Below are positions 1,128 to 26,364 of a DNA stretch of 27,582 bases, piece by piece (the first letter of the stretch is position 1; each line of letters begins with the position of its first letter). The notes under the pieces are model-generated. The model did not search any database. It was not told where the DNA came from and saw nothing but the letters and a program-made list of their open reading frames with translations. Location of the stretch: IMG/VR virus record IMGVR_UViG_2663763270_000002. One strand, given 5' to 3'. A program made the translations under genes and the position numbers. The DNA is from an uncultured virus (IMG/VR IMGVR_UViG_2663763270_000002). Its lineage: Duplodnaviria > Heunggongvirae > Uroviricota > Caudoviricetes.

Positions 1128-1561
1128 GATGCCGCCTCTTCCGTTGTGCTGTAGGTGATTTCGATCCACATGCGCCCGCCTTCGCCCTTCACGGCTGGGT
1201 GGATGAGCGGTTCCGGCTTGGCCATCCACTGCGGGGTGTCGTCGAGCACGAGCCCGTACCCGGGTACCGTGCCGCGTTTGGATGCGCGCGAAACGGTGAG
1301 GGCGTCGGCGATCGGTTTGAGCGTCGCGACGAGGTTGTCGGTGTCGCGGCGGCGGTTGTCGCGCGGCTGATAGTGCAACTGCACTGCGGCGTGCGCGACG
1401 AGCCGCGGGAGCTTGGCCTGCGTGGCGAGAGCGATGATGGTTTCGCGGATCTCGCGGGTTTTCGCAGCTTTCGCCATCGCGGCGCCGCGCGTGTACCCGC
1501 GGTCGTTCATCGACAGCGGCGGCGACGTCCACGGCAGATCGATACGCACCAGGGCGGTCAC
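1124..1561 (-). CDS. rusA: RusA-like Holliday junction resolvase
   Basis: PPLSMN; RRRDTDNLVATLKPIADAL; GLVLDD acidic catalytic pattern. Confidence 0.85.
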   Translation of the reverse strand: MTALVRIDLPWTSPPLSMNDRGYTRGAAMAKAAKTREIRETIIALATQAKLPRLVAHAAVQLHYQPRDNRRRDTDNLVATLKPIADALTVSRASKRGTVPGYGLVLDDTPQWMAKPEPLIHPAVKGEGGRMWIEITYSTTEEAAS

Positions 1562-19606: not shown

Positions 19607-20196
19607 GACGCCCTCCCTTGCTTCGACTCGATGCCGAACAGGTTGGCGAGCTTGATGGTGGAGGCGATCTCGCGGCGCCGATCGACGTGACTGATCGCAG
19701 CCTGCTTCGCCGCGGCAACCCGACCCTTGAACTCCTCCAACTCGGCAGCGGTCAAGTTATGCTGGGCGGGTCGCTTCAACGCGACCGCCAGCGCGATATC
19801 ACGCGACAGGCGGTGCGCTTTCTGCGGCGTGAACCCCATCTCCTGGAGGATGTGGTTCGCCATCTCCATCTCCGTGACACGCTCTTTCGGCAGACTCGCC
19901 AGCACATCGCGGCGCGCGGCGTGAGCGTGGCTGACGATCATGTCCGGGGTCGGACGGAACTGCTCGACAGGTTCGGACCGTGCTTCAGCTCGCGCCTGAG
20001 CGACCTTGATGTGCTGGGCGCGGGCGTGATCCACGCCGGCGACGAGGTCTTCCGCGGACAGGCCGGACGCCTCGAAGTGAGCAGCCCATGCCGCGACCGC
20101 GGCGGCGCCGATCTTCGGGAACCACAGGTCGAACGTTTGCAGGTTGTCCACGACTGCCTGTGCGGCATCGAGGTAGTAGGTATCGGGGGCGGTCAT
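19603..20196 (-). CDS. Putative helicase loader-like protein
   Basis: AVAAWAAHF..LVAGV..FRPTPDMI; directly after the initiator. Confidence 0.6.
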   Translation of the reverse strand: MTAPDTYYLDAAQAVVDNLQTFDLWFPKIGAAAVAAWAAHFEASGLSAEDLVAGVDHARAQHIKVAQARAEARSEPVEQFRPTPDMIVSHAHAARRDVLASLPKERVTEMEMANHILQEMGFTPQKAHRLSRDIALAVALKRPAQHNLTAAELEEFKGRVAAAKQAAISHVDRRREIASTIKLANLFGIESKQGRAS

Positions 20197-21149
20197 GCGG
20201 TTTCGGTCCAGTTCTCGTAGGTCGTGACATCGGCGTCGAACGGTTCGGCGTCGACGATTTGGATCAGCGGCGACTGCGTTGCTGGTTGGGTGGCACGGCG
20301 CCGCACCTCTTCGAAGACGGCGGCCTGCTCGCGCTGCTTGCGGTCGGATGCCGCCACGCGGGGGCCGGATGGCGTTGAGGCTGCGGCGGGAGCATTTCGC
20401 CCGCGGCTGATTGTGGAGACGAGCGAAGGCAGTGACCGCGGACCGAGTTCAGGCTTGGAGAGCCAGAGTTTGAGGCCAGCGCGGATGTCTTCAGCAGGGA
20501 TAGGCGGGTCCTGTCGCAGCATGGCGCTGGCTTGGAGGGCGAGTTCGGTTCGGACGGCAGCGGGTTCGCTGTCGGGGATCACGCTGCGGACGAGTTTGCG
20601 TCCGTCGATGTCGACGACCGGTCCGGGTTTAGCGAGTGCGGCTTCGAGGTCCACGTCGGCCGCTTCGCGCGCTCGCGCGTCACTTACTGGAGATGCGTTG
20701 TCACGTGAGTCGTTCTTATTCTCTTCTCCTCTACTCTCCTCTGGGGGCGTGACGTCACGTGAGGTGTCACGTGACACGGTTTGGGATTGCTGGGCCTTCT
20801 TGTCGCGTGCGCGGCGCTGCCGTTCGCGGTCAGCTTTGCGGCGTTCGAGCAGGTCATCGCCAGTCCCGTTCCAGTTGGCCCATGCTTTGAACCGGTAGCC
20901 AGGGTTGCTGCGACCCTCCGAATCGGTGTCGGTTTCGACCCAGATTCCGGCACTAATCAGCTCCGAAACTCGCTTGGAAACCGCGCGAATTCCGAACGTT
21001 TTCAGCACACTTTTGGGCACGAATCCGCGTGTTTCGGCGGCGCCGCAGTAGGCGAGGGCGCGTGTGAACAGCCGTTCTGCGTCGGCGTGCGGGAGGCTTG
21101 CGATCGCGGGGTCGAGGTAGTAGGTCGATGACAGCCAGACAGCTTTCAC
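20193..21149 (-). CDS. Phage replication initiator-like protein
   Basis: N-terminal wHTH-like region (LAYCG..GFVP..ELISAGIW..WANWN), RKADRERQRRAR helix, internal palindromes. Confidence 0.75.
   Translation of the reverse strand: MKAVWLSSTYYLDPAIASLPHADAERLFTRALAYCGAAETRGFVPKSVLKTFGIRAVSKRVSELISAGIWVETDTDSEGRSNPGYRFKAWANWNGTGDDLLERRKADRERQRRARDKKAQQSQTVSRDTSRDVTPPEESRGEENKNDSRDNASPVSDARAREAADVDLEAALAKPGPVVDIDGRKLVRSVIPDSEPAAVRTELALQASAMLRQDPPIPAEDIRAGLKLWLSKPELGPRSLPSLVSTISRGRNAPAAASTPSGPRVAASDRKQREQAAVFEEVRRRATQPATQSPLIQIVDAEPFDADVTTYENWTETA
20700..20777. repeat. Putative origin: three TCACGTGA palindromes around a pyrimidine tract
   Basis: TCACGTGA at 20701, 20755 and 20767; CGTGACGTCACG at 20748; GTGTCACGTGACAC at 20764; CT tract 20711-20742. 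Confidence 0.6.
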
Positions 21150-21205
21150 TGCTGCGCTCCTTCGTGGGCGACTACCTCGAAAAGGAGTCTGCGTGATACG
21201 CTCAT
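21146..21205 (-). CDS. 19-aa leader/relic ORF MSVSRRLLFEVVAHEGAQQ coupled to the initiator
   Basis: AGGAGG upstream; stop overlaps the initiator GTG. Confidence 0.5.
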   Translation of the reverse strand: MSVSRRLLFEVVAHEGAQQ

Positions 21206-21209
21206 GGGG

Positions 21210-21319
21210 AGCCCGCCTCCTACGGGCTGTTGCCGGAATCTCTTTGATTCCAGGCGTGTACGCGCCTCCTACGCGTACTTCGAGCGGCGCACCTACTGTC
21301 CAGGCGGGTGCGCCGTTCG
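21210..21319 (-). ncRNA. Candidate structured leader RNA: four hairpins, two with identical UAGGAGG loops
   Basis: Stems at 21285-21315, 21258-21278, 21232-21255 and 21210-21228. Confidence 0.55.
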
Positions 21320-21362
21320 CGCTTTTCCTGGTGGCGTCCAGCCAACAGGAGCTGTAGTTTGG

Positions 21363-21392
21363 AGACTACACTTTAGTTTCGATCGTACGCAA
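21363..21392 (-). promoter_or_regulatory. Promoter TTGCGT-N18-TAGTCT overlapped by inverted repeat TGTAGT-N6-ACTACA
   Basis: Read directly; same -35 hexamer as the 3194 promoter. Confidence 0.5.
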
Positions 21393-22113
21393 CGGACGAG
21401 CCGTGTCGCTGCTCTCTCCTGTGGTTGGCGGCGGCAGAGCAGGCGCGGCAGCGACGATGCCCGCGGCTGTCATAGGCCAGGTTTCCGTCGCTGTAGCGGT
21501 GCCCATTCGGGCAGACGGGCCGTTCCGAGAGCTTGACGCCCATCGCTTTCCAGTCCGGCTGCGCGCGGGGGTCGTCGATGTCGCGGCCCTCCCACGCCAG
21601 CGGTGGCGCCGGTTTGGTGCGGCAACGCCGTGCGGTGTCGGGTCTTGGACCGGGGGTTCCCGACAGTTCCTCGTAGAGGTCGCGGATCGCCGCCCACCGC
21701 AGATAGGTCATGTGCGGGCGGTTGATGGACTGGTTGAGGTTGCTGGGATCGCGTAGCCCTAGGCGGGCGGCGAGGTCGGTAGTGGGCCATCCGATAGCGT
21801 TGAGTGCGCGGATTCGCCGGAAGGCGCCGACCGCCAGGACAAGCTTCTGGCCTGGGTGGGGGGCGTGGGTGACGGCGAGGATGCGCTCGGCGAGCTGAAC
21901 GCGCACCTGTCGGGCGGCGCCGTTGGCGATGGCGCGGATTGCTTGTTCAGTGCAGCCAGCTGCGGTCCCGATCATGGGGGCAGTGACGTCGAGCGCGTAG
22001 AGGGCATGGATGTGGTCGCGGACAGGTCCGGCGGGGCGGTAGACGGCGATGCTGTTGGCTTTGCGCCACCTGTACAGCTTGCTTTTGCGGGTGGAGGCAC
22101 AGAGATTGGTCAT
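21373..22113 (-). CDS. Multi-HTH DNA-binding protein with C-terminal CPNGH..RCRAC zinc finger
   Basis: ATGA overlap at 22110; paralog of the upstream genes. Confidence 0.8.
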   Translation of the reverse strand: MTNLCASTRKSKLYRWRKANSIAVYRPAGPVRDHIHALYALDVTAPMIGTAAGCTEQAIRAIANGAARQVRVQLAERILAVTHAPHPGQKLVLAVGAFRRIRALNAIGWPTTDLAARLGLRDPSNLNQSINRPHMTYLRWAAIRDLYEELSGTPGPRPDTARRCRTKPAPPLAWEGRDIDDPRAQPDWKAMGVKLSERPVCPNGHRYSDGNLAYDSRGHRRCRACSAAANHRREQRHGSSVAYDRN

Positions 22114-22946
22114 GCCGCCTCCTGCTGTTGGCGTAGCTTCGCGCGGTGTCGGACAAGGGCTCGATCGGCGGCGTCGTGGCTGATGCGGAGTGCGTTGGCG
22201 AGTTGCCGCGCAACCCACCTGTTGTGGACGGCGTGGTCGAGCACGGCTGCGCGTTCAGCGTTGGGGACGGGGCCGCGGTGGGCGCCAGCGAGGATGCGGG
22301 CGACGAGGACTTCGTCGACGGCTGTCTGTTCTGGCGCGGTCGTGTCGAGGATTGGTGTGCTGTCGGGGTGGTCGATGTCGACGCCTTCCCATGCGATCGG
22401 GGGCGGGAAGCCGGCGGCGCGGGCGCGCTTCACGCCGAGCTTGGACGGGCCCGGGGTGCCTGACAGTTCGTTGAAGAGGCTTTCGATCGCCAGCCAGGTA
22501 GCGCCCCGGATTTGCTGGTGGTCGCAGGCTGAACGGACCGTGCCTGCTTTCCAGCCTCGGTGTTGTTCGAGACTGGGGTAGGTGTGGCCGATCGCTTGGA
22601 GTGCGCGGATCCGGCGTGCGGCGCCGAGTGCTGGCACCAGCATGTCGGCTTGCGCGGGGGTGGGTACGTGGGTGACGTTGCGGAGCAGCATTGCGTGGTG
22701 GATGCGGGTCTTGTCGTAGACGCCGGTGCGGACTTGCCAGACGGTGCGTTGTGGTAGTACTGCGGCGGCGGCTATAGCCCAGTCGGAGAATCCGAGTTCG
22801 TGGAGCCAGGTGAGGTGTTCACGAATGGGGGTGCTGTCGACGAGGGTGCTGGCGAGGCCGCGAGCCACCCGCATCTTGTACACCTTTTGAACTCGTCCAG
22901 GCCCTAGGGCGGGAACTTGGGATGCGATGTAGGTTCTGTCCTTCAC
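22110..22946 (-). CDS. Multi-HTH DNA-binding protein
   Basis: GAARRIRALQAIG, ELSGTPGP, PPIAWEGVDID; terminal HTH. Confidence 0.8.
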   Translation of the reverse strand: MKDRTYIASQVPALGPGRVQKVYKMRVARGLASTLVDSTPIREHLTWLHELGFSDWAIAAAAVLPQRTVWQVRTGVYDKTRIHHAMLLRNVTHVPTPAQADMLVPALGAARRIRALQAIGHTYPSLEQHRGWKAGTVRSACDHQQIRGATWLAIESLFNELSGTPGPSKLGVKRARAAGFPPPIAWEGVDIDHPDSTPILDTTAPEQTAVDEVLVARILAGAHRGPVPNAERAAVLDHAVHNRWVARQLANALRISHDAADRALVRHRAKLRQQQEAA

Positions 22947-23392
22947 GCCGCGGTCCCCAGGATCTTGTTGATGGTGGCGCCGGAGACATGGAGGGTGTCG
23001 GCGATGTGGGTTTTGAGCCAGCCGCGCTGGTGGAGGGCGTGGGCGTAGGCGGGTTTGTCGTAGCTGGCGATCGACTCATCTCGTCCAGCGAGGAGCCGGC
23101 CCAGTACGACGTCATCGACCATGGGGGTGGGGCGTCCGAAGCGGATGGTGGCTTCTTCGACTGTGAGGTTGAGGACCCGTTCGGCGATGTTTCGGTGGGC
23201 GTGGCGGGAGAGTCCGCGGCGGATGCCGTTGATGGTGCGGGCGGAGATGCCGAGGCCGTGTGCGAGCCGGGTTTCGACGACTCCGGCGGCGTGGAACTGT
23301 TGCAGTCGTTCACGTACCGGGTCGGCGGGGACGTATCCGATCGATCGGAGGCGTCGGATGGCTGCTGCGCTGTGGACGCTGGCGGTGGTCAT
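22943..23392 (-). CDS. Double-HTH DNA-binding protein
   Basis: LAHGLGISARTINGI and IADTLHVSGATINKI; ATG at 23392. Confidence 0.8.
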   Translation of the reverse strand: MTTASVHSAAAIRRLRSIGYVPADPVRERLQQFHAAGVVETRLAHGLGISARTINGIRRGLSRHAHRNIAERVLNLTVEEATIRFGRPTPMVDDVVLGRLLAGRDESIASYDKPAYAHALHQRGWLKTHIADTLHVSGATINKILGTAA

Positions 23393-24090
23393 GCTGCTTC
23401 GCTTTCGGGGGCGTGGGAGATGGGCCATCCGTGGCGGACGTCGTCGGATGGGAGGTTTTTGCGGCGGAGGTAGTCGATGAAGCTTGCGGTTTGCTCGCTG
23501 TGCCATCGGGTTTGGGCGGCCATGAGTTCGGGCGCGGTGAGGGTGGCGAGTTCGGGGTAGATGCGGGGCATTTTCCAGGCGAGGCGGGCTGCGGCGAGGG
23601 CATCCGCTTGGGCATCGTGTGCGTCATCCAATTGGATGCCGTAGTGGATGCATGTTGCGGACAGTTTCCGGGAGCCTGGCCGGTACCGGTCGACGTGTTT
23701 GTCGGCTATGTAGGCGTCGAAGATCGGCCCGCGGACCTCGAACCCCTGGTGGTGGGTGGCGAGGATGGTGAAGTCGAAGGACCCGTTGTAGCAGGCGACG
23801 ACTCGTCCTTCGGCCCAGCATGCGTACAGTTCGTCGACGATGTCGGCGATGACTTCCGGGTGTGGGCGCCCGTACTTTTCGGCGTACTCGGTGGTGTATC
23901 CGTGGATGTCGGTTGCGGCTTGCGGGATGGGGATTCCTGGGTTCGCGAGGAAGTTGCGGGCATGGACGTCGGGGCCGTCGATGCGTAGCACGGAGGCGGT
24001 CACAACCCGGTCGGTCGTGACCGACACTCCTGTGCTTTCCACGTCGAAGGCCGCGAGCGGCATGCCCAACCACAGGGTGGGCATGGTCAT
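23389..24090 (-). CDS. dnaQ: DnaQ-like DEDDh 3'-5' exonuclease
   Basis: AFDVESTG, IHG, YNGSFD and AHDAQAD. Confidence 0.9.
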   Translation of the reverse strand: MTMPTLWLGMPLAAFDVESTGVSVTTDRVVTASVLRIDGPDVHARNFLANPGIPIPQAATDIHGYTTEYAEKYGRPHPEVIADIVDELYACWAEGRVVACYNGSFDFTILATHHQGFEVRGPIFDAYIADKHVDRYRPGSRKLSATCIHYGIQLDDAHDAQADALAAARLAWKMPRIYPELATLTAPELMAAQTRWHSEQTASFIDYLRRKNLPSDDVRHGWPISHAPESEAA

Positions 24091-24293: not shown

Positions 24294-25214
24294 CTACTCC
24301 CCCGTCTCGGGCGGGAACATGCCGCTGTCACCGGCGGGTGGCACGTCCTCGTAGTAGTCTGTCGGCGCGTCCTGCACTACATCGTCGTCGACATGTTCGG
24401 CGTCGATCACCTCCGATTCGATGTGGATCGGACGGTCGATCGCATCGGGCGTGAGATCAACACGCACGGCTTCGTCGTGCTCGATGGCGCGCGCGAACTC
24501 CGTGGACTTCGGCATCCACTTCGCCAGCTGCCGGACGCACGTCTTGTGCGCCATGCTCTCGAAGTTGTCCTTCCACGGCCCGTACTTGCCCTTGGACTTG
24601 GTGTGCTTCTCGCAGAACTCGACCATCTCGTCGTAGGTCATGACGAGGAACGCATGCCCGCCGGTGGTGAACTTCGCGATGGCGTAGAAGGCAATCGGCT
24701 CACCGCGGGGGCCCTTCATGACGGGCTTGTGGACGAGCGAGTCCGCGAGACCGTAGTCCACATCGAACGTGTCGTTCTCGTACACGGTGCGCGCGATCAA
24801 CGACGCGATCTTGCCGGAGCGGTGCGCCAGGTCGACGAGACCTTGATAGCCGATCACCAACTGCGCGCGATTGGCGCCTTTGCGGCTACGGCCGGAGGCG
24901 TCGGTCCATTCGAACTTGCTGTCCCAGAAGGGAAGCAGCCATGCGTGACCGAGCACGCCGGGTCGCAGTCCGAGCTGTGCGCAGCTCATCAGTGATCCGA
25001 GAACCGTGGCGGGGTCACATTCGGCGAGCTTCGGGGTCTGCCGCAAGCAGGTGAGCGCGTCCCGCACGAGCTGCGCCGCTTCGGCGCCGCGGGGCATGGC
25101 CATCTTGAACTGCTGCTCCATGTCGCGGATCTGCTGCTGGAGCGATGGCGGCTTGTTGTCTGCCTGTTCGATGTGAGTGTTCTGTTCGATGCGGTCGACG
25201 ATGTTGCGGGCCAT
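24294..25214 (-). CDS. recT: RecT single-strand annealing protein
   Basis: AQLGLRPG..LG.AWLLPF, QLVIGYQG..DLA.RSG, W..NFESMAHKT..RQLAKWMPKS. Confidence 0.95.
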   Translation of the reverse strand: MARNIVDRIEQNTHIEQADNKPPSLQQQIRDMEQQFKMAMPRGAEAAQLVRDALTCLRQTPKLAECDPATVLGSLMSCAQLGLRPGVLGHAWLLPFWDSKFEWTDASGRSRKGANRAQLVIGYQGLVDLAHRSGKIASLIARTVYENDTFDVDYGLADSLVHKPVMKGPRGEPIAFYAIAKFTTGGHAFLVMTYDEMVEFCEKHTKSKGKYGPWKDNFESMAHKTCVRQLAKWMPKSTEFARAIEHDEAVRVDLTPDAIDRPIHIESEVIDAEHVDDDVVQDAPTDYYEDVPPAGDSGMFPPETGE

Positions 25215-26203
25215 CAGGCCACCTCTTTCAGGTCAAGGGTTTTGGACTGGTACTTGCGGTAGACACCGGGGTGGTCGTTCCGTAGCGCGGAAGCGTCGAA
25301 CGCCTGTCGGGTCAAGTACTCGGCGTACAATTCCGGCTCGGCGTCCCGGAACTTCGCCTCACAGAAGCGGCCGTTCTTCAGCGCGACCCACGGCTCATCC
25401 CCGACCAGGAGGCGATCGTGGCCGTCCATCAGCGCGAGGATCTGGTTGCCAGCGGCCTTCTTCCGCTTCGCTGCAGTGCTCTCAGCTTCCTTGGCTGCCA
25501 AGTACTCGGCGTGAAGGCGGCTGATCTGTTGACGGGTTACGTGTAGGTCTCCGCCGACGTACGGGTGCATCCGGTCGACGGCCGCGCGGTCAGCGGATGT
25601 GCCCCTGATCGGCGGTTCCACATCAGCGACGACGTGATCGCGCCAGAACCGGTCGCAGGCGTCGACGCACAGTTCGATCAACCGGTCGTTCCGCTCGATC
25701 CGAACGATTTCCAGTCGGTTCCCGCCGATCAATCCGGCGGCATAGGCGTGGCGTGCGCCAGTCACGTACATGCCGTGGTGCAACTGGACCTCGGCATGGT
25801 CGGGGATCTGCCCATCCCACAGCGACTGCATGAACCAGGCGGTGTTTTTGCATTCGAGCAGTCCGCCGTCGGAAAATAGACCGTCCGGCGAGTAGAGCAT
25901 GTGTGGTCGTTCGATCGAAGCGAGCGTGCCGGGTGTTTCGACGGTGAGGCCGAGACGTTCACAGGCGACTTCCCGGATGACCGGTTCGAGTTTGCGGCCC
26001 CAGAACATGGCCTCGGTGTCGATGCCGGAGTCCGCTGGGGCGCGGCGGGTCTTGCGGAGCCAGATCGTGTATGGGGAGTCCCAGTCGACGAGCCCGAGCA
26101 GACCAGACACTTCGGAGGAGCCGATGCCGGCGAGACGGGCTTCGAGCCATTCAGGGCTGCCGTGCTCGGTGCGCGGGAGTTCGCGAAAGAGAGCGGGGTT
26201 CAT
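25214..26203 (-). CDS. YqaJ-like viral recombinase/exonuclease (RecE partner)
   Basis: WLEARLAGIGSSE, WGRKLEP, SPDG, LECK and QLHHGM; ATG at 26203. Confidence 0.92.
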   Translation of the reverse strand: MNPALFRELPRTEHGSPEWLEARLAGIGSSEVSGLLGLVDWDSPYTIWLRKTRRAPADSGIDTEAMFWGRKLEPVIREVACERLGLTVETPGTLASIERPHMLYSPDGLFSDGGLLECKNTAWFMQSLWDGQIPDHAEVQLHHGMYVTGARHAYAAGLIGGNRLEIVRIERNDRLIELCVDACDRFWRDHVVADVEPPIRGTSADRAAVDRMHPYVGGDLHVTRQQISRLHAEYLAAKEAESTAAKRKKAAGNQILALMDGHDRLLVGDEPWVALKNGRFCEAKFRDAEPELYAEYLTRQAFDASALRNDHPGVYRKYQSKTLDLKEVA

Positions 26204-26364
26204 GCGAGCCCGATCCAGGGGGTGTTGGTCCAGTCGAGGGCGAGGAGGATGAGTGTCCACAGCGCGGTCAGGCCGAGGATGCAGGCGGTGATCTTCGCGT
26301 GGTCGGTGATGCGGCGGAGTGCGCTCGCCTGTGGGGGTCGGGGGTTATGATTTGGTGTGGGCAT
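26200..26364 (-). CDS. Small membrane protein (54 aa), first gene of the leftward operon
   Basis: GAAAGGA RBS; ITACILGLTALWTLILLAL; stop overlaps the YqaJ ATG. Confidence 0.7.
   Translation of the reverse strand: MPTPNHNPRPPQASALRRITDHAKITACILGLTALWTLILLALDWTNTPWIGLA

Follow-up and report, generated by a model that had tools for sequence, protein, structure and literature searches.

The leader and its flanking genes

The stretch of DNA analysed here (the window, 27.6 kb) is part of a prophage, G000:C2:2571384-2598965, integrated in the chromosome of a 6.46-Mb, 5-contig genome that is 100% complete. Its replication initiator gene is preceded by a leader of several hairpins, the last of which carries a Shine-Dalgarno (SD) sequence in its loop. 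The leader folds better than expected by chance and contains an RNA module of four hairpins that is conserved, with covarying stems, in relatives; a small antisense RNA is predicted from the opposite strand. All leader features are read on the minus strand, and the genes around the leader are co-directional with it. Hairpins are numbered hp1 to hp6 in the direction of reading, and those called from the fold were taken from the minimum free energy (MFE) structure.

21373..22218, minus strand: upstream gene, encoding a member of the phrog_1590 family (E 2.6e-39) whose C-terminus has an HNH-like Zn finger
21363..21392, minus strand: putative sense promoter, TTGCGT (21392-21387), 18 nt, TAGTCT (21368-21363), from the sequence
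21353-21370, minus strand: hp1, palindrome TGTAGT-N6-ACTACA, containing the putative sense -10
about 21349-21327, minus strand: hp2, from the MFE fold
21281..21319, minus strand: hp3, 13-bp GC-rich stem (arms 21319-21307 and 21293-21281) and 13-nt loop (CGCCUGGACAGUA)
21258..21278, minus strand: hp4, GTACGCG-TAGGAGG-CGCGTAC, from sequence and fold
21232..21255, minus strand: hp5, GCC(U)GGAAUC-AAAGA-GAUUCCGGC, from the fold
21210..21228, minus strand: hp6, AGCCCG-UAGGAGG-CGGGCU, with the SD of the first open reading frame (ORF) in its loop, from sequence and fold
21146..21205, minus strand: 19-codon ORF (MSVSRRLLFEVVAHEGAQQ, then stop), apparent 5' relic of an HNH gene, from DNA alignment with intact HNH genes
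20193..21149, minus strand: RepA-like replication initiator, 318 aa (phrog_1882, phrog_2447, phrog_3926)

The stop codon of the upstream gene (TAA, 21375-21373) is separated from the 19-codon ORF by an intergenic region of 167 nt, and residues 231-274 of the upstream protein match HNH phrogs. The SD in the hp6 loop lies 10 nt ahead of the ATG of the 19-codon ORF (21205), whose TGA overlaps the GTG of the 318-aa ORF (GTGA), as a first-pass annotation made from the sequence had reported. For the 318-aa ORF, matches were obtained to phrog_1882 (E 6e-49) and to the 'replication initiation protein' family phrog_2447 (1e-24). Relatives occur in 48 actinophage records, all below 60% identity and several of them annotated as RepA-like replication initiator; a Pfam search with this protein gave no match.

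The structured leader that the same annotation had placed before the initiator is borne out by folding. The 236-nt leader has an MFE of -101.9 kcal/mol, compared with -81.0 +/- 4.9 kcal/mol for 200 dinucleotide shuffles (z -4.27; 0/200 as good), and its 138-nt core reaches a z-score of -4.90. The predicted structure of the leader is therefore better than chance. Its MFE fold contains six hairpins between the upstream stop codon and the ATG; four had been listed and all four are present, but the count was too low. The arms of hp3 (13 nt) are 92% complementary, and genome G297 is 98% identical to hp3 over 47 nt. The identical TAGGAGG loops of hp4 and hp6, on different stems, are confirmed by both sequence and fold, whereas an alternative structure in which CGCCT would pair with AGGCG is absent from the MFE and centroid structures.

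The repeat described around these loops is also real. CGTAGGAGGCG occurs in exactly two copies in the window, with a spacing of 49 nt, and TCCAGGCG, the complement of CGCCTGGA, in two copies with a spacing of 50 nt, so that the unit CGCCTGGA...CGTAGGAGGCG is present twice with spacers of 25 and 24 nt. The 6.46-Mb genome contains 28 copies of the 11-mer of the repeat and 5 of a reversed control, so that two copies 49 nt apart are unlikely by chance (an estimated ~1e-4). The hp4 palindrome is not repeated elsewhere in the window. A search of the whole window against Rfam 15 gave 0 matches at the gathering threshold, leaving the leader without an Rfam family, and in E-value mode nothing rose above noise (E 3.1 at 14.2 bits and E 4.8 at 12.8 bits).

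The pair TTGCGT-18 nt-TAGTCT, annotated as the promoter of the leader, is present where predicted, but a simple sigma-70 consensus scan does not call it (0 sites); we regard it as a putative sense promoter inferred from sequence only. GTGTA(G/T)nnT is found again right after the stop codon in five of the relatives described below (L009, L047, L052, L055 and L084). The hp1 palindrome has no second copy in the window and could be a candidate operator for the promoter that feeds the leader. Pairs resembling it, TGTAG(C)...(G)CTACA, are seen in L009 (about 1226-1260) and in the L052 leader.

Distribution and gene context of the module

Relatives were sought across the genus with the upstream Zn-finger protein, which matched in 43 of 267 genomes. 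Fifteen loci with a match reaching the Zn-finger C-terminus were inspected, corresponding to 14 distinct sequences (L051 being the same as L009). The leader architecture was found in five of these (L009, L047, L048, L052 and L055) and a short plain spacer in the other nine. A covariance model added a divergent module in L059 (30.5 bits), and L084 (the same as L105; 99.7 bits) and the divergent L086 (23.1 bits) were added from IMG/VR and metagenome contigs with an alignment query. Together with the window, this makes nine distinct modules. The closest relative of the locus is the Nocardia niwae contig L009, with an initiator 69% identical to that of the window. L051, from a genome of the same genus as the window (G478), is identical to L009 over the 450 nt compared, and on this identity the host genus is probably Nocardia.

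The module is single-copy per genome, rare, and so far limited to the genus and two uncultured contigs. Searched with the covariance model, 151 genus genomes yielded only the 6 that had supplied training sequences, and 151 family genomes (34 genera) only G000. Ten upstream regions of initiator homologues elsewhere in the family were inspected; L009 alone has the leader, and the remaining regions consist of a short intergenic stretch or a single hairpin. None of 50,697 phage records matched a 2.2-kb megablast query, and a distant blastn returned four records only, all aligned to the coding part of the initiator and none to the leader. An IMG/VR contig (L091, 2421-2577) gave a weak match to a second covariance model (16.1 bits, E 0.0084).

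The location of the module is constant. It follows the phrog_1590 Zn-finger gene and stands ahead of the replication block, regardless of the initiator family: RepA-like in the window and L009, O-like/HTH_36 (phrog_270/391/1032) in L047, L048 and L059, and, in L055, an initiator with an HTH_36 Pfam match below the cutoff only. Because it precedes the HNH relic, intact HNH genes, ~97-aa ORFs or a 21-codon ORF, and differing initiators alike, the module is a marker of the start of the replication block for any initiator family. The ~97-aa ORF encodes a conserved protein and replaces the HNH gene in L047 (2465-2755), L055 (2455-2751) and L048, where it separates the module from the O-like/HTH_36 initiator. 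This first gene is unrelated to HNH, the L047 copy has no Pfam or PHROG match, and in L047 its stop overlaps the initiator start.

Covariation of the stems and conservation of the last loop

The conserved part comprises hp3, hp4, hp5, hp6 and the start codon, with a constant order of the hairpins. Folds of seven of the nine modules, compared with those of shuffled sequences, have z-scores of -3.4 to -6.4 (sense strand) and -3.8 to -4.9 (antisense strand), and every MFE structure shows the same four hairpins. The MFE structure of L084 contains all four and that of L086 a part of them.

The stems of hp3, hp5 and hp6 are nearly wholly different among relatives and pairing is retained; the arm sequences of hp5 are distinct in almost every one. 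For the hp3 core, we aligned seven of the nine sequences (6 distinct rows), leaving out L048 and L052, which MAFFT had misplaced. All 54 cells are paired, which is partly by construction, the hairpin predicted for each sequence having defined where its segment was cut; this does not apply to the double changes, which are seen in four of the nine pairs. The score for covariation is 0.430 versus 0.158, none of 500 shuffles being as high, and slid controls are 37-50% paired with zero double changes. A pair-list script maximising identity found double changes in 10/13 hp3 columns (9 sequences) and 4/8 hp4 columns (8 sequences); its hp5 columns were unreliable and are not cited. Whole-module MAFFT and cmalign alignments had stems out of register and were excluded from these counts, as was the RNAalifold result.

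Conserved loops on covarying stems had been named as a finding that would support the first-pass proposal. The stems do covary, but only the SD loop of hp6 is conserved. GGAG or GGGAG stands in the hp6 loop, or at the boundary of loop and 3' arm, in every relative, in agreement with the assignment of the second TAGGAGG loop as the SD of the 19-codon ORF. No other hairpin retains a GGA/GGAG loop across modules. In hp4 it is the stem sequence that is conserved ((G/T)(T/C)ACGC(A/G)) and the loop that is hypervariable: TAGGAGG occurs in the window alone, and relatives have TTCCCG, TTACCGG, TTGCA, TTACCA, TTGGA, ATAT or TACCAC, hp4 being absent altogether from L047. The second CGCCTGGA copy is likewise peculiar to the window. 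Because both are local to it, the twin SD-loop unit on which the first-pass annotation was centred is, as judged from these alignments, a peculiarity of the window phage and not the functional core. A TAGGAGT is present in the hp5 loop of L048 (2470-2494), besides its hp6 SD loop. A second SD-like loop thus arose twice, independently, at different hairpins (hp4 in the window, hp5 in L048).

The first ORF as a relic of an HNH gene

Downstream of the module, L052 and L084 have a complete HNH endonuclease gene (phrog_14314, E 1e-75; Pfam HNH), whose product begins with MS(L/V)(S/T)RRLRFEILRRD. The beginnings of the 19-codon ORF of the window (MSVSRRLLFEVV...) and of its 28-codon counterpart in L009 (MTISRRPWFEVMRRDSRTCRSL...) align with the HNH gene at the DNA level, in an alignment that took in the intact genes of L052, L084, L085 and L088; the L009 28-aa product is identical to the L052 HNH protein at 13 of 27 residues (E 1e-07). 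The stumps of the window and L009 are of unequal length, and in both the TGA overlaps the initiator GTG. By this comparison, the 19-codon ORF is what remains of the 5' end of an HNH endonuclease gene and not a dedicated leader peptide. The stump left by a deleted gene can, then, be enough to make a 'leader peptide'.

Small overlapping genes are also found upstream in phages Sleepyhead and prophi62-3, and the overlap of the short ORF with the initiator is therefore ordinary gene packing. Translational coupling of the initiator to the 19-codon ORF is predicted from the stop/start overlap in the window and L009, and from an ATGA overlap in L059. There, a 21-codon ORF (MMITHSSPSRAMGASDRPGVA; 1182-1247, minus strand) follows the divergent module and overlaps an O-like/HTH_36 initiator, the second example, behind this module, of a very short ORF that overlaps the initiator.

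The relic ORF also contributes to a possible long-range helix at the initiator start:

21112..21180, minus strand: UCGAGGUAGU (21180-21171, relic ORF) with ACUACCUCGA (21121-21112, initiator codons 10-13), 10/10 complementary

This helix encloses the SD and GTG of the initiator and is part of the MFE structures of the window and of L009 (8 bp in L009). Its leader-side arm is HNH coding sequence (FEV), and a role of the helix in coupling is a weak suggestion.

A candidate antisense promoter and RNA on the opposite strand

The opposite strand of the module carries features compatible with a small countertranscript:

21194..21202, plus strand: candidate antisense promoter with the extended -10 TGATACGCT, lying across codons 2-4 of the 19-codon ORF
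21209..21326, plus strand: predicted cis-antisense RNA of ~118 nt, from the -10 and the plus-strand fold
21320-21328, plus strand: T-rich tail CGCTTTTCC, which with the preceding hp3 complement makes up the proposed antisense terminator

An extended -10, TGnTAnnnT, stands at the identical position in seven of the nine modules and in none of three leaderless HNH starts. The copies read TGATACGCT in the window, TGATATAGT in L009, TGATAGACT in L052, TGTTAGACT in L047, TGGTAGAAT in L048 and TGTTACACT in L055 and L084, and their differences are confined to the four N positions. TGNTANNNT occurs three times on both strands of the window (9.0 in shuffles), this copy being the sole one on the plus strand; TGnTAnnnT occurs 268 times in the 6.46-Mb genome. 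In the seven motif-bearing modules, codons 3 and 4 invariably end in A (positions 9 and 12), and their first positions, thus the amino acids, vary. Invariant third and variable first codon positions are the opposite of a protein-selection pattern. A-ending codons make up 10.5% in the ORFs of the window, where the pair NTA-NCA is found once in 2560 codon pairs.

A start ~7 nt downstream of the -10, at G21209, would place the hp6 complement at the 5' end of the RNA. The plus-strand fold of the module is -67.7 kcal/mol (z -4.79). From 5' to 3', the predicted RNA consists of the hp6 complement (loop CCUCCUA), the hp5 and hp4 complements (hp4 loop CCUCCUA) and the hp3 complement with a U-rich tail. 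Since the SD is in the hp6 loop of all modules, complementarity to it is automatic for a cis-antisense RNA. The hp3 complement has a stem of 9-13 bp across modules and is followed in the window by CGCUUUUCC; the tail consensus TGCGTTT on this strand (AAACGCA before hp3 in the sense) is conserved. In the 9-10 nt past hp3, the antisense strand has 4-6 T versus 2-3 for the sense strand (7 modules parsed correctly). An A.C mismatch of the sense strand in hp3 (window and L047) and C.A mismatches flanking hp6 (L048 and L052) become G.U pairs only on the antisense strand.

The leader was also compared with contigs of four small public runs, which we treat as hints and do not count as evidence for an antisense RNA. 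Among the public runs, none is recorded as RNA. A contig spanning 21014-21301 is 100% identical to the window and has adapter-like letters at both ends, which resemble SMART-type cDNA adapters. Their orientation gives a weak hint of a sense RNA with its 5' end in the hp3 loop. Three contigs from two studies, of a relative ~98% identical, stop at 21203 against the same adapter letters. This junction (21203-21209) could be compatible with a plus-strand 5' end at G21209, the predicted start.

Possible modes of control

We tentatively read the leader as a conserved RNA module through which an antisense, countertranscript-like mechanism controls the replication block of a temperate Nocardia-type phage, an account that we place a little short of probable. 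The small cis-antisense RNA would be transcribed from the extended -10 over codons 2-4 of the first ORF. The CCUCCUA loop of its 5' hairpin, the exact complement of the SD loop, would make a loop-loop contact with hp6, from which a spreading duplex would make the ribosome-binding site of the first ORF inaccessible and perhaps lead to cleavage. Less translation of the first ORF would mean less initiator by translational coupling. The 19-codon relic would serve as a coupling leader by default, its translation opening the 10-bp helix over the initiator start, following the logic of plasmid countertranscripts.

Several observations weigh against an antisense RNA. The -10 motif is missing at that place in the two most divergent modules, L059 and L086. 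Two of the three leaderless HNH genes also contain GTATCA (TGATAC when read on the opposite strand); in part, therefore, the motif is coding sequence that was inherited, and the A at +4 alone is module-specific. The seven motif-bearing sequences are related, and counts made on them overstate independence. No -35 element accompanies the motif, and sigma-70 consensus scans return 0 promoters. On the side of termination, the T-rich tail is not continuous (TGCGTTT), hp3 has a larger loop (9-15 nt) than is usual in intrinsic terminators, and the sole terminator-like call (plus strand, 21304-21320) is within shuffle expectation. Sense-specific G.U pairs exist too, for example at the closing pairs of hp4, leaving the strand undecided by wobble, and the region of the long-range helix has local z-scores of only -1.36 and -0.88, which are not significant. 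Because the genome at the 21203-21209 junction (CATGGG) matches the 3' end of the adapter, the contig ends there are equally explained by mispriming on sense RNA or by strand invasion; if the junction is real, the antisense RNA extends over more than 750 nt, with no stop at hp3.

A rival reading is a leader that acts on the sense strand alone, which we hold to be possible while leaning against it. The hairpins of such a structured 5' untranslated region would stabilise or process the mRNA, the SD loop would be a standby site or a tuning device, and TGnTAnnnT would be inherited coding sequence together with the effect of selection for early codons rich in A/T. The same folding and covariation evidence applies to it, as does the SD kept in the hp6 loop of every relative. 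It accommodates GTATCA in leaderless HNH genes and the hairpins without the motif in L059 and L086, and the contig identical to the window, ending at 21301 in the hp3 loop with a template-switch-like adapter, would fit a processed sense 5' end, though weakly. It leaves unexplained the invariant A at +4 and the rare A-ending codons 3 and 4 while first positions vary, the conserved AAACGCA before hp3, and the G.U pairs found only on the antisense strand.

The antisense account has an extended form, possible but attended by more doubt than confidence. The four hairpins from hp3 to hp6 and the antisense promoter would constitute a portable sense/antisense cassette, gating the replication block of temperate Nocardia phages whatever the initiator and moving as a unit with its boundary a few codons inside the first ORF. 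In the window, the RNA would have two anti-SD loops (CCUCCUA) and a dead HNH gene would have been recruited as the coupling leader peptide. If true, this would be the first replication-control countertranscript for actinobacteriophages.

A function at the DNA level, with the palindromes as operator or initiator sites, or as an origin forming cruciforms or single-strand hairpins, appears unlikely. The conserved hp4 stem around a variable spacer is as in a palindromic operator, hp1 overlaps the putative -10, and origins often lie beside initiator genes (available text of PMC7157519). However, the stems of hp3, hp5 and hp6 have almost all changed with pairing kept, which is unexpected for sites of a conserved protein; the module stands ahead of non-homologous initiators; neither palindrome recurs in the window; and three copies of TCACGTGAC in 75 bp inside the initiator gene are a better origin candidate. 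Still less likely is an RNA that initiates or primes replication, the role put forward for extrachromosomal, non-RepA prophages of cluster A mycobacteriophages, where RNA-based origins are described in phages without an initiator protein (available text of PMC7157519). A structured non-coding transcript beside replication genes would follow that precedent, but here an initiator is always downstream and the window prophage is chromosomally integrated. The first-pass proposals of a CsrA/RsmA GGA-loop RNA or of a target for a trans-acting c4-like RNA deserve scarcely any credit: the window has two identical GGA loops, and L048 its hp5 TAGGAGT with the hp6 SD loop, yet a second SD-like loop is missing in seven of the nine modules, the 100%-complete genome encodes no CsrA family protein (PF02599, 0 matches; controls in E. 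coli, B. subtilis and T. maritima positive), and CCTCCTA occurs in the window only at the complements of the two TAGGAGG loops themselves. What plausibly survives of the antisense partner then suggested is one encoded in cis.

Comparison with known systems

In plasmids, rep genes that have a leader peptide may be under countertranscript control, as in the CopA/CopT-tap-repA system of R1 and the Inc RNA-repY-repZ system of ColIb-P9. As predicted here, a small antisense RNA inside the rep leader acts on a stem-loop target, the ribosome-binding site of a short upstream ORF is the control point, the initiator is coupled to that ORF, and a helix over the initiator start is opened by translation of the leader. 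A further plasmid example of antisense control is RNAII/repB of pMV158 (available text of PMC4485353). The present case differs in concerning an integrated actinobacterial prophage, in its four hairpins, in having the SD within the target loop, in an antisense RNA that is a prediction, and in a leader ORF that appears to be an accidental relic of a gene complete in relatives; the plasmid systems bear no sequence or Rfam relation to the module.

Phages also have antisense RNAs near replication or early genes, such as OOP of lambda, between cII and O, and sar of P22. As is predicted here, these cis-antisense transcripts are short, end in a hairpin and lie within an early operon of co-directional genes, just ahead of the initiator gene. 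In contrast to the multi-hairpin leader target considered above, OOP is directed at the 3' end of cII and not at the ribosome-binding site of a replication gene, and there is no homology. The P1 c4/icd-ant system resembles the window in its repeated leader targets and in a short ORF whose translation is required for the downstream gene; c4 is, however, trans-acting and processed from the same strand, and the repeat of the window is not conserved. In Bacteria, an antisense RNA over the 5' untranslated region of dnaA is described for B. subtilis (available text of PMC12112137).

We also considered the start-associated sequences (SAS) of cluster K mycobacteriophages. According to the available text of PMC3203893, these are AGGAG motifs between short complementary G/C runs (GGGATAGGAGCCC), of unknown function, found just before the starts of non-structural genes, at a distance of 3-7 bp; each genome has 11-19 copies of the fixed 13-mer, and the extended repeats (ESAS) do not support RNA pairing. 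A relation to SAS/ESAS was rejected: the window has one locus with two 11-mer copies in 27.6 kb, only one of them before a start codon, the stems of the module covary, and its SD lies ~10 nt from the ATG.

In a keyword search of the literature that did not cover subscription journals, no antisense or structured leader before actinophage replication genes was found described, and a conserved RNA module before prophage replication genes is a real and so far undescribed element. The regulatory RNAs of actinobacteriophages are almost uncharted, and a conserved, covarying module at the start of the replication block would be an aid to annotating prophages of Nocardia and relatives. The leader is a testable case of a temperate phage keeping its initiator silent or dosed, and the module could give a compact regulatory part for the genetics of Actinobacteria.

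Neighbouring genes and a candidate origin

Upstream of the leader, the window contains the following genes, assigned by protein family matches:

25214-26260, minus strand: YqaJ-type exonuclease
24294-25214, minus strand: RecT
22943-23506, 22110-22946 and 21373-22218, minus strand: three phrog_1590 paralogues in tandem (window 21373-23506)

The C-terminal Zn finger is restricted to the last of the three phrog_1590 paralogues (21373-22218), and relatives, too, have two or three copies in tandem. Dam and another methyltransferase are encoded further along, beyond the initiator gene.

The three copies of TCACGTGAC within 75 bp of the initiator gene lie at 20700-20774 (minus strand) and code for a repeated 'SRD' in a low-complexity linker of the protein. 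By analogy with lambda O, they look like iterons and may mark an origin within the gene, which is a more likely place for the replication origin than the leader. The same words are visible in the homologous initiator genes of L057 and L058.

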